Source of the DNA: a virus | Taxonomy: Duplodnaviria > Heunggongvirae > Uroviricota > Caudoviricetes | Virus record (IMG/VR): IMGVR_UViG_2713897055_000006 | Direction: 5' to 3' (one strand) | Length of the DNA stretch: 18,908 bases | Part shown: positions 12,001 through 15,000 of the stretch, one piece after another | How the letters are laid out: each line of letters starts with the position of its first letter | Position numbering within the stretch: the first letter of the stretch is position 1 | Position numbers: made by a program

Positions 12001-15000
12001 ACGCGATACGCCTGCTCTGATGGAAATACCCCGCAACCAGAGAGCCAGACATCACCACTGGCCGCAAGCGCACCAGATAAACGACGAATAGCGGTCTTAC
12101 TGACACCCGTTTTATCTGCCAGTTGTCGAAAAGTTTCTCGTCCGCTCAGGCGCACGAATTCCACAATGCGCGCCTTCACTTCTTCCCGCTCTTCTGGTGT
12201 AAATACTTTTGCCATAAGCGCCTCCGGCAATCACTTTTCCGATACAACACGGCGGGAAGAATCAGTAATCTGTCGAACAATATCCCGGTGCTTGTTCACC
12301 TCCCGCAGCGCGGCGCAGACTCGCTCCCACTTCTGAACATCACTTTTCGCCCTGCGCAGCGCCAGGTTTGCCCTGCGAAGGGACGGAAAAATCAGCTCAT
12401 CTGCTTGCGTTTCGGTAAACGATGGCAACGGCTGCACAATGTCCGCCACAGTTTCTGTTTTAATTTCTTCCTGTGTTGCGGCTTCCCGGACTGGTAACGC
12501 AGCACCTGCTGGCTGAGGAAAGGCCTTACCATCACTTTCCGTTACCAGCGCGGCTTTCGGCTCTGCTGGTAAATTATCGCCCGGCATGCAGTAACGAAAT
12601 TTATCGTTCTGATTAACGCGTGCCAGCCGCCCCGTTGCGGTTACCACCGCCAGCGTGGAGGCAACCTTGCGAGTACTGACGCCGAACTTACCCGCCAGTT
12701 CCTCACACGTTTTAGCACCATCCTGACCGATAAACTCAATCATCATGTCTGCGGTAACTTTTTGTTCGACCTCCCCGGTCAGCATATCCTGTGCTTCAGA
12801 TTTTACTGGCCGCTCTTCGGTTACCCGGGATTCACCTTCGCCAGCCAGAAACCAGGTGTGACCAGTTTTATCAACGACGCCATTTCTTTTGAGTTCCCAC
12901 AGCTCGTTGAGAACCTCTTCACGACTGATATCAAGTCGCGCGGCCAGTTCTACCGATGTGGCTTTTCCCATTGCTTTCAGTGCGTCAAATACGGTTTCCA
13001 TTAAAATTTCCTCCGACAAAATCGTTTCTCAGATTCAAATAAAACCAGCTGCCTTCCGGCGTTCGTATTCCTGTTTCAGCCGTTCAATTGGCGTTGGCCC
13101 TTGCGGGTGTTTCGCCCCTTCCAGTTGTCGTCGCACTGGCGGAACACTCATCCCGTTACCAACATGCTTTGCCCATTTCGTCAGTTGCCGTTCCGCAAGT
13201 CGTTTTAACTCACCCTGCGTCATCTGGCGCTCAATCCCTCTGGTACGCATTTCGAGGCAGATGTGGTACAGCACAGGCTGAGGCCACGGATATTTGTCGC
13301 TTCCGTCATATCGCCAGGACTCATCACGCCAGCGGCGGTACTCCTCCATCACAGCATCCACCGTCAGGCCAAATGGATTGGCCCCGCTTTCTGAAATCAG
13401 CGCCACAAACTCAGCCAGGTCCGGAGGCCATGTTTCACCCGCCCGGCAGCGGTCCATGCACTGGCGGCAGACCTGTCGGATTTGCTGTTCAGTCATCGCA
13501 CCAATCTGGGCAATCCAGAGCTTCGAAGGTGCGGCCCCGTTCTTCTGGGTCCAGCGGTTCGAATAAACCTCCCCCATGAGTTCCCACAGCTTCCAGACCG
13601 TTTCCGTCGCTGATAAATCCGTTTTCACGTTCCCACTGCTCACGTGCTGCCCGAATTTCCTGAACTGCCCGTGATGCGGTGCCACCTGGTGCTGCTGCAT
13701 GGTTTACCCCCTTGCTGACTGGCTTAACCTGCGCCCTGACGTGATTTACGTGACGGGCGAATTTCTGCTCCCACTGAACCTGCGTGAAAACTTTCCCCTC
13801 CGCTGCCCAGTAGTCCCGGAAAGCGGCAAGTTCAGCAGGTGTAAATTCCGGCTCCGGCAAAGCCATCCCCCACAACGCAGCCCGTCGTCGAAAATCCGGC
13901 GACGGATGCCAGTCATCGACCATCGGAAATTTCCCGATGGGTTCGCTCAGTCCATCCAGGGATGCAGGTTCTGCTGCCTGCAACGGCGTACCACTCGACT
14001 CACTGGTCGGAGTACTCTCGCGCACGTGCGCGTTATGTGTGGGGTTTAATTCTTTATCTGTATCTTTATCTGTCGTGACTCGTCGTGACATGTCGTGACA
14101 TATGCGTGACTCGTCGTGACACCCCTCATTCTGTTTTCGTAATTTTTCCCTCTCGCGCTGCGCTCTCTTGCGCTCTGCCGGGGATTTCGCGGTTTGTGAA
14201 ACGTTGCCATTGTCCTCTTTCAGTACCTGGCGTTTTTCCCATCCGGTGATTAAATCTCCATCAAGTACCCGCCCCTGCATTGCCTGTAAAATTGAATCAA
14301 TTACTTCTTCCGTCACATCAAGCGCACTTGCTAAATCTTCCGTCGTGACATCAATGTGACCACGTAGTGACACGCCGTGACATGTCGTGACATTTCGTGA
14401 CGCGCTCACCAGAAGGTGGATATACACTGCCATCACTGTTGCAATTGGCTGCCCTGACACCCTGGCAATTGTTCGCCACTTAGGGTCATTTGGCATGTCA
14501 TGCCATAATCTGAGCCAGGCGTTAGCCATACTCACCTCTTCTGATACCGAATCTTTTTACTCACAAATTGCCGGAAGTGATCCGGTATGAATATTGCGAG
14601 TCAATGCACAGCCACAATATTTCCTGCAGGGCCACCACGATTCATCTGGTTGAAACCAGCGATCGCCACTGCGACAAAATCATCAGCGTCTCTCACCAGT
14701 CGTTCCCGCGTCTCCACCAGCTCCCGAAAATAAGCTGAACTGTGGCTGCGCATTCGGGCCACCAGCAGAGGCGGCATTGCTTTTTCGATCGCTGGTAACA
14801 ACGCCTGAATTTTTTTAACCGCATCAGGAGTGTCTTTCTCCACCCAGCGGAAAATTTTCTGGGTATTGCGAGCCAGGGCTTCCGGATGGCTGTCGTCATA
14901 TAATTCCGGGAACGTCATACCAAGCTCAAAATAAGCCCGGGTTATTTCAGCTGCCGGAACTTTTTTCACCGTCCGGATGCGCCCAGGCATTCATCGCCAT

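Follow-up and report, generated by a model that had tools for sequence, protein, structure and literature searches.

Results

Two arrays of one short repeat lie inside a phage replication initiator gene

We analysed an 18,908-nucleotide (nt) stretch of Caudoviricetes DNA (IMG/VR record IMGVR_UViG_2713897055_000006; the whole stretch is hereafter the window) in which two arrays of one short repeat both lie inside a single minus-strand open reading frame (ORF), 13489-14529, that encodes a replication initiator, in a region that is probably a prophage replication origin. On the plus strand, GTGAC starts at 14075, 14085, 14095, 14106 and 14116 in one array (spacing 10, 10, 11 and 10 bp) and at 14345, 14356, 14367, 14377, 14387 and 14397 in the other (11, 11, 10, 10 and 10 bp), with mean spacings of 10.25 and 10.4 bp respectively and an identical orientation for every copy. 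The coding (minus) strand reads GTCAC(G) at each core, with six copies in the array that comes first in the gene (array A) and five in the second (array B), across a gap of 220 bp (14120 to 14341). TCGTGAC occurs seven times and GTCGTGAC six times in the 18.9-kb window, all within the two arrays. Tandem Repeats Finder assigned a period of 10 to both arrays, and also returned a 12-bp AT-rich direct repeat (TCTTTATCTGTA, 1.9 copies) at 14051-14073. An earlier note, made from the sequence of the window alone, had described five and six GTGAC-core repeats at 10-11 bp spacing, about 220 bp apart, with an AT-rich direct repeat beside the 14072-14120 array; word positions and Tandem Repeats Finder confirm the repeats, and the latter also the AT-rich direct repeat. 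Its description of them as helically phased iteron-type repeats within an initiator gene is also supported.

Such clustering is far from what the composition of the window yields: GTGAC occurs six times within 60 bp, whereas first-order Markov simulations of the window (300 runs) gave at most three, and any 5-mer at all reached at most five, in 3 of the 300 runs. Within the arrays, no promoter or terminator rose above shuffled expectation. Array A covers gene nt 129-185 (codons 43-62), which encode a beta-hairpin between helices 29-45 and 63-70, and array B covers gene nt 410-455 (codons 137-152), in the disordered interdomain linker (Table 1). The cores fall in reading frames 2, 0, 1, 2, 1, 0 in array A and 1, 2, 1, 2, 0 in array B, and encode the peptides SR, VT, CH/GH and VS; being read in all three frames, they constitute a DNA repeat and not a peptide repeat. 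As to the low-confidence inverted core listed in Table 1, its codons, for D-V-T, are GAC GTG ACN (CGTGAC) in most class-1 homologues, V being GTG in 17 of 20. Another CGTGAC, at 13749, occurs too in phage Rac-SA53, which has no arrays, and was treated as chance.

Table 1. Features of the initiator region and its neighbours, and two chimera genes found at other loci. Coordinates are those of the window unless a locus is named.
Feature	Position	Strand	Remarks
Array A, six GTCAC(G) cores	14345-14401	-	Gene nt 129, 139, 149, 159, 170, 181
Array B, five GTCACG cores	14072-14120	-	Gene nt 410, 420, 431, 441, 451
Lone inverted core (GTCAC on the + strand)	14312-14316	+	Low-confidence site; ~30 bp downstream of array A in gene orientation
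AT/purine-rich hexamer tract GATAAAGATACAGATAAAGAATTAAA (coding strand)	14044-14073	-	Proposed DNA unwinding element and mosaic joint
Perfect 14-bp palindrome CGCGCACGTGCGCG	14019-14032		Just past the AT tract
Replication initiator gene, 346 amino acids (aa)	13489-14529	-	ATG at 14529, Shine-Dalgarno AGAGGTGAG upstream
N-terminal winged-helix domain, aa 1-100	14230-14529	-	Presumed iteron-binding/specificity module
DnaT-like single-stranded DNA-binding domain, aa 201-267	13729-13929	-	Pfam PF17948
P-like helicase loader ORF	13035-13700 (221 aa) or 13035-13496 (RefSeq, 153 aa)	-	Pfam Phage_lambda_P; RefSeq start near 13496
cII/YdaT-like gene	14601-14990	-	
Cro/YdaS-like gene	15011-15292	-	
cI-like repressor	15413-15856	+	
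HNH chimera gene	L157:4001-4546		
HNH chimera gene	L158:2100-2660		

The gene is annotated as a coding sequence by RefSeq in E. coli 042. We assign it as a replication initiator because of its position, between cro/cII-like genes and a P-like loader gene, and because the 346-aa protein matches PHROG families of 'replication initiation protein'. The protein consists of a predicted winged-helix N-terminal domain (N-domain), a disordered linker (predicted local distance difference test score, pLDDT, below 50 at aa 137-166) and a DnaT-like C-terminal domain (C-domain). The latter matches PF17948 with 64.1 bits (cut-off 25; E = 9.6e-18) over aa 201-267, and DnaT chains in PDB with E about 1e-20 (2e-20), while the full-length DnaT model NCBIfam NF002770 reaches 97 bits where 201 are required, with the match confined to aa 192-278: the initiator carries a true DnaT-type domain without being DnaT. 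In the Pfam scan of the whole protein (E <= 0.01) the DnaT domain alone was returned, with nothing for aa 1-140 and no match to the lambda O family, and the PDB sequence matches were to DnaT only. The name 'O-like' that the earlier note gave to the gene consequently fits its role and position, but not its sequence. The N-domain is, by prediction, a DnaD-like winged-helix fold. Close relatives of the initiator are named 'phage replisome organizer' by NCBI, and its weak PHROG matches include 'replisome organizer' (E = 4e-5) and 'DnaD-like' (E = 5e-7); Pfam PF09681 (Phage_rep_org_N) gave no match to the window protein and, in 2 of 25 homologues, one at E = 0.029, below threshold. Many database proteins of the family are labelled 'partial', because assemblies break there.

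Both arrays are conserved and change their core together

We compared the gene with 82 close loci and with a distant set in which each species was represented by one genome: 66 further loci, to which a Pseudomonas aeruginosa prophage and a food-metagenome phage were added. Sixty genes were scored. Among the close loci, array A has four to six cores and array B three to five, with length varying by 21-bp in-frame steps; E. coli phages vB_EcoS-689R5, Tritos and Evi, whose N-terminal half has ~90% DNA identity to that of the window gene, have both arrays, with 4 + 5 cores. In 43 of the 60, which come from Gamma-, Beta- and Alphaproteobacteria and metagenome-assembled genomes (MAGs), two or more copies of one hexamer, 10-11 bp apart, stand at each of the two gene positions (nt about 117-185 and about 340-450), and such arrays are found almost never elsewhere in the gene. 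Conservation in homologues, on which the earlier note had made its proposal depend, thus extends to distant genes in which the core itself has changed.

Per gene, the core is GTCACG (26 genes), GAACGC (20), GTAACG (6) or GTGACGC (1), and arrays A and B of any one gene always have the identical core. In longer form, the second and third of these cores read CGAACGC (class 2) and GTAACGC. A switch also divides close relatives, Erwinia L108 having GTCACG and Pantoea L109 and Enterobacter L111 GTAACG. Since the independent switches are few (at least three or four), we take this concerted change as strong qualitative evidence, not as a p-value. The distance between the arrays ranges from 158 to 340 bp, with clusters at 211, 229, 238 and 247 bp (modes 211 and 229), and is set largely by protein length. 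A search for specificity residues by mutual information between iteron class and protein columns was discarded because the two main classes are deeply split, which confounds the signal, and the top columns are array-encoded ones or clade-specific indels. Of 5426 complete E. coli genomes, 2564 contain matches to parts of the initiator gene, and 658 (about 12%) to at least 80% of it.

The cores of array A are selected as DNA as well as protein

Third codon positions were compared in 20 class-1 genes, most of which share 55-70% N-domain identity with the window protein. Within array A, those of V47 (GTC), T48 (ACG), G50 (GGT), V54 (GTC) and T55 (ACG) are the same in 20 of 20 genes (2.0 bits). Outside the arrays, fourfold-degenerate sites of equally invariant residues (P13, T20, P28, A76, V81 and G89) are saturated, at 0.0-0.3 bits, fourfold-degenerate sites outside array A as a whole have about 0-0.5 bits, and third positions in the array A spacers (R49, V52) are random. 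Invariance at degenerate sites of the cores, with saturation elsewhere, indicates selection on the DNA. The Arg-Gly at the hairpin turn is also invariant, with a free third position, so the hairpin is under protein-level selection too and the dual coding is real.

An AT/purine-rich tract follows array B only

Past array B on the coding strand, at gene nt 457-486, comes the tract GATAAAGATACAGATAAAGAATTAAA, with a local G+C content of 35% (14044-14073); array B and the tract both lie in linker codons 137-162. AT/purine-rich hexamer repeats (GATAAA, GATACA, GAGAAG) occupy the 40 nt past array B in 45 of 47 homologues, with a mean G+C content of 34% after array B, compared to 51.5% in the 60 nt after array A and 56% over whole genes, and the tract stays at 35% even within a gene of 69% G+C. 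Codon choice in the tract was examined in the 20 genes of at least 57% G+C: GAT:GAC is 53:5 in the tract versus 153:238 in the rest of the gene (Fisher p = 8e-15), ACA against other Thr codons 24:10 versus 30:262 (p = 5e-14), and AAA:AAG 40:15 versus 86:161 (p = 3e-7). Such skewed choice in GC-rich genes marks the tract as a selected DNA element and not a mere acidic/basic linker, and this signature is found after array B only. The GATAAA tract was also considered as a DnaA box or IHF-like site and rejected, with at most 5-6 of 9 DnaA-box matches by eye. The palindrome CGCGCACGTGCGCG belongs to a Rac-like C-terminal module and is imperfect in Rac-SA53; it is reminiscent of lambda, which has an inverted repeat to the right of its AT-rich region.

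The N-domain, arrays and tract are inherited as one module

The N-domain, both arrays and the tract are inherited together with varied C-termini, a DnaT domain being present in 7 of 43. Phage Rac-SA53 has only the C-terminal half in common with the window gene (93% identity); its N-domain differs, being DUF1376-like as judged by sequence motif alone, and GTCAC arrays are absent from its initiator gene. The homology break between the 689R5-like N-terminal half and the Rac-SA53-like C-terminal half falls at 14051-14071, within the AT tract, which seems to act as a recombination joint between a specificity module and a loader-interaction module. The tract (14044-14073, with homologous tracts in L002, L001 and L003) is the sole stretch common to both mosaic halves. 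Candidate sites of another sequence, the inverted pair GGTGTTCAAACA and GGTGTTTGAACA, lie just upstream of the AT tract in Rac-SA53 ydaU (L002:1590-2660), where TGTTCAA recurs at gene nt 149 and 360. The literature on Rac oriJ was considered as a parallel and set aside, the Rac-type YdaU N-domain (Rac-SA53) being of another type and without GTCAC repeats.

The N-domain also occurs fused to nucleases

In six proteins (P0050, P0080, P0084, P0102, P0111 and P0119) the initiator N-domain is joined to an HNH nuclease (Pfam HNH, E = 7e-12 to 2e-15). P0050 and P0111 share an identical HNH tail on different N-domains, and P0119 has a class-2-type hairpin. At L158 and L159 the chimera lies directly upstream of a different, DUF1376-type initiator, and hence does not serve that phage's own origin. 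By analogy, these chimeras may be putative origin-directed nucleases resembling ICP1 Odn, in which the origin-binding domain of an initiator is fused to a nuclease domain (PMC8263062). The two have in common the fusion itself and swappable specificity domains (PMC8263062); unlike Odn, the chimeras here are HNH-type and keep array A in their own coding sequence. In two enterobacterial homologues (L136:2501-3688 and L150:2501-3802) the N-domain is fused to a region that weakly resembles GIY-YIG/MUG113 (E = 0.004 and 0.024, short of the cut-offs); these have no array A, and ACTACGTA units are repeated after the N-domain instead.

Gene neighbourhood and other features of the window

The initiator gene is part of a lambdoid early-right operon on the minus strand, which comprises Cro/YdaS-like, cII/YdaT-like, initiator and lambda-P-like loader genes and a DUF1627 gene. 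For the loader, phrog_109 aligns from aa 19, and the lambda P structure 8v9t from aa 72, at its residue 83. A loader start at 13700 makes the ORF overlap the final ~70 initiator codons in another frame (13497-13700, minus strand), and one profile, phrog_15931 (482 positions), covers both initiator and loader; possible readings are that the two genes overlap over a long stretch, that the start is wrongly set, or that the proteins are fused or frameshifted in some phages.

Elsewhere, Rfam and ARAGORN detected ordinary lambdoid-prophage cargo at 8416-8591, 17638-17689, 1521-1772 and 1-114: the sok antitoxin RNA (hok/sok locus), the DicF small RNA, transfer RNAs Arg-tct, Arg-tcg and Met-cat, and a piece of STnc100. 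The window has further short tandem repeats at 6808-6852 (20/12-bp unit ATGCCCTAATGCATGACCTAA, 2.1 copies) and 17868-17892 (13-bp unit, 1.9 copies).

Discussion

We consider it rather likely that the region is a prophage replication origin in two parts, in which array B and the tract form the core and array A is accessory. The N-terminal winged-helix domain would bind each 10-11-bp GTCACG unit and, with one same-sense repeat per helical turn, the bound initiators would be aligned on one face of the DNA. An oligomer on array B would destabilise the adjoining (GATAAA/GATACA)n tract, the unwinding core; once this has melted, the DnaT-like C-domain and the P-like loader would recruit the DnaB helicase of the host to it. 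Array A, 220 bp upstream in the codons of the DNA-binding domain, would be an accessory array for the same initiator, where it most likely raises the local initiator concentration or bridges to array B by a loop of ~230-275 bp; it may in addition, or instead, serve as an intragenic operator and hold down transcription across the gene, these roles being non-exclusive. Melting of the tract and the role of array A are what we infer for this origin. The earlier note had read a dual array as pointing to a different initiator-binding geometry or to a duplicated origin, and the former, as predicted from the layout, is plausible.

Several points weigh against this two-part origin. That the initiator binds the repeats of the two arrays we infer solely from their co-inheritance, and the helix in its usual recognition position (aa 74-84) is acidic. 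A clear array A is absent from about a quarter of the scored lineages, and most of the array-A-lacking lineages examined (L123, L128, L141, L143, L146, L151 and L152) retain array B and the tract, so that array A is not generally essential for initiation. A gain of array B copies to offset the loss of array A is unsupported (Spearman rho +0.35), and there is no robust helical phasing between the arrays, with Rayleigh p = 0.055 at a period of 10.5 bp and significance at 10.0 bp only, inflated by related sequences. Lastly, the HNH chimeras of L157 and L158 keep array A, its cores intact and at spacings of 10, 10 and 11 bp, and have neither array B nor the tract, which suggests for array A a role linked to the N-domain gene, for example in autoregulation, rather than to unwinding.

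This persistence of array A in chimeras without an origin core, together with its dispensability where array B and the tract are retained, also favours the most serious rival, to which we would give perhaps one chance in four: array A would be purely an intragenic operator at which the N-domain protein blocks or slows transcription from the early rightward promoter, in a negative feedback on the initiator and the genes downstream, and the origin would be array B and the tract alone. The placement of array A early in the gene (nt 129-185) and its lack of an AT-rich neighbour fit such an operator. With no promoter-like site near array A, however, it would have to act as a roadblock, and we know of no autoregulation by lambda O binding inside the O gene. 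Cooperation of array A with array B is, moreover, compatible with operator action, which thus overlaps with the two-part origin.

A long shot, concerning the structure that array A encodes, is that the beta-hairpin (aa 46-57) itself helps to read the iteron, site and part of the reader then being the same nucleotides. Were this true, an iteron change would alter the hairpin automatically, and both arrays and the protein would switch specificity together; the N-domain with array A would be a portable cassette of site plus reader, captured also by the HNH nucleases.

We think it improbable that the repeats are bound by another factor, of the host or a different phage protein. The acidic helix in the recognition position of the initiator would suit such a factor, but repeat class follows N-domain lineage from Enterobacteria to Sphingomonads and Acidobacteria MAGs, and is independent of the C-domain and of the neighbours (a P-like loader here, primase-helicase genes in L004 and L006). 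No better prospects attach to a duplicated origin, with each array acting independently, for example in two modes or directions of replication. Although the arrays are alike in sequence and orientation, and in the E. coli window the G+C content dips modestly (35-40%) past array A, at 14280-14339, the segment after array A is not AT-rich across the family (51.5% G+C against 34% after array B), the codon-choice signature of the tract is confined to array B, and several lineages have no array A. Array A is, on this sequence evidence, unlikely to be a second origin, and the second suggestion of the earlier note is made improbable by the AT/purine tract being found after array B only and by the absence of array A from about one in four lineages. 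Least credible of all are protein repeats or slippage-prone DNA with no cis function, which would account for the 21-bp in-frame steps in copy number among close relatives and for arrays that encode loop and linker regions, but one hexamer in three frames makes no peptide repeat, the synonymous sites of the cores are invariant over deep divergence, and arrays A and B change sequence together.

The two-part origin has partial counterparts among known systems, of which the lambda origin and the replisome-organizer origins of Gram-positive phages come nearest in how they work. It resembles the lambda origin, oriLambda, in that iterons (array B) and then an AT-rich tract follow one another in the direction of transcription within the interdomain linker, in the P-type loader gene downstream, and in that the N-domain and iterons form an exchangeable specificity module; the AT-rich tract of lambda likewise has this orientation and a purine bias on the coding strand. 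In lambda and Stx phages the origin lies inside gene O, in the linker between the N-terminal origin-binding and the C-terminal loader-binding domains (PMC7466680, PMC8022706). However, lambda has one array of four iterons (Stx phages six) of ~19-20 bp with dyad symmetry, whereas the units here are 10-11 bp long, asymmetric, contiguous, in one orientation and one per turn, a second array lies 220 bp upstream in codons of the DNA-binding domain, and the protein is no homologue of lambda O. As the earlier note had held for lambda, the layout departs from that of lambda, P22 and phage L, in each of which one array lies centrally (PMC8022706, PMC7466680).

An origin of direct repeats beside an AT-rich unwinding element, embedded in the initiator's own gene as here, is also found in SPP1 (oriL in gene 38), TP901-1 (ORF13) and Tuc2009 (Rep2009), whose initiators bind these repeats (PMC5737612, PMC6316719, PMC8965321). 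The second site of SPP1, oriR, differs from array A in lying kilobases away with its own unwinding element, and the initiator here differs from replisome organizers in falling below the Pfam Phage_rep_org_N threshold. Short units are known as well, an 11-bp repeat occurring six times inside gene 18, the O-equivalent gene of phage L (PMC8022706), and the intragenic origins of lambda, SPP1, TP901-1, Tuc2009 and phage L are described as single arrays (PMC8022706, PMC7466680, PMC5737612, PMC6316719, PMC8965321). P22 and phage L gene 18 share with the window gene short imprecise direct repeats inside a lambdoid O-equivalent gene, and differ in having a single array, as described, and in their initiator family and repeat sequence. 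Iteron plasmids (P1 oriR with incC/incA, F and RK2) have a separate auxiliary array that modulates initiation by titration or pairing. With P1 incA/incC the window gene shares two arrays of one repeat, a single one of which adjoins the unwinding element, although in P1 the arrays flank the rep gene and serve plasmid copy-number control, and the Rep proteins are unrelated. We found no description of an origin for this initiator family in the literature, in which subscription journals were partly covered, so an earlier description is possible. An origin within an initiator gene is, then, known; what this family contributes is a conserved second array overprinting a structured part of the DNA-binding domain.

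Altogether, the gene offers a clear natural case of strong dual coding, in which the same bases are constrained both by the protein and by a cis element, and it shows many copies of a repeat evolving in concert at two sites. Array A can be removed by synonymous recoding with the protein unchanged. The repeat cores define origin/specificity classes for a widespread and unstudied replication module with relatives in Pseudomonas, Bordetella, Serratia, sphingomonads and others, and the HNH chimeras built on its N-domain may have a role in phage-phage conflict.

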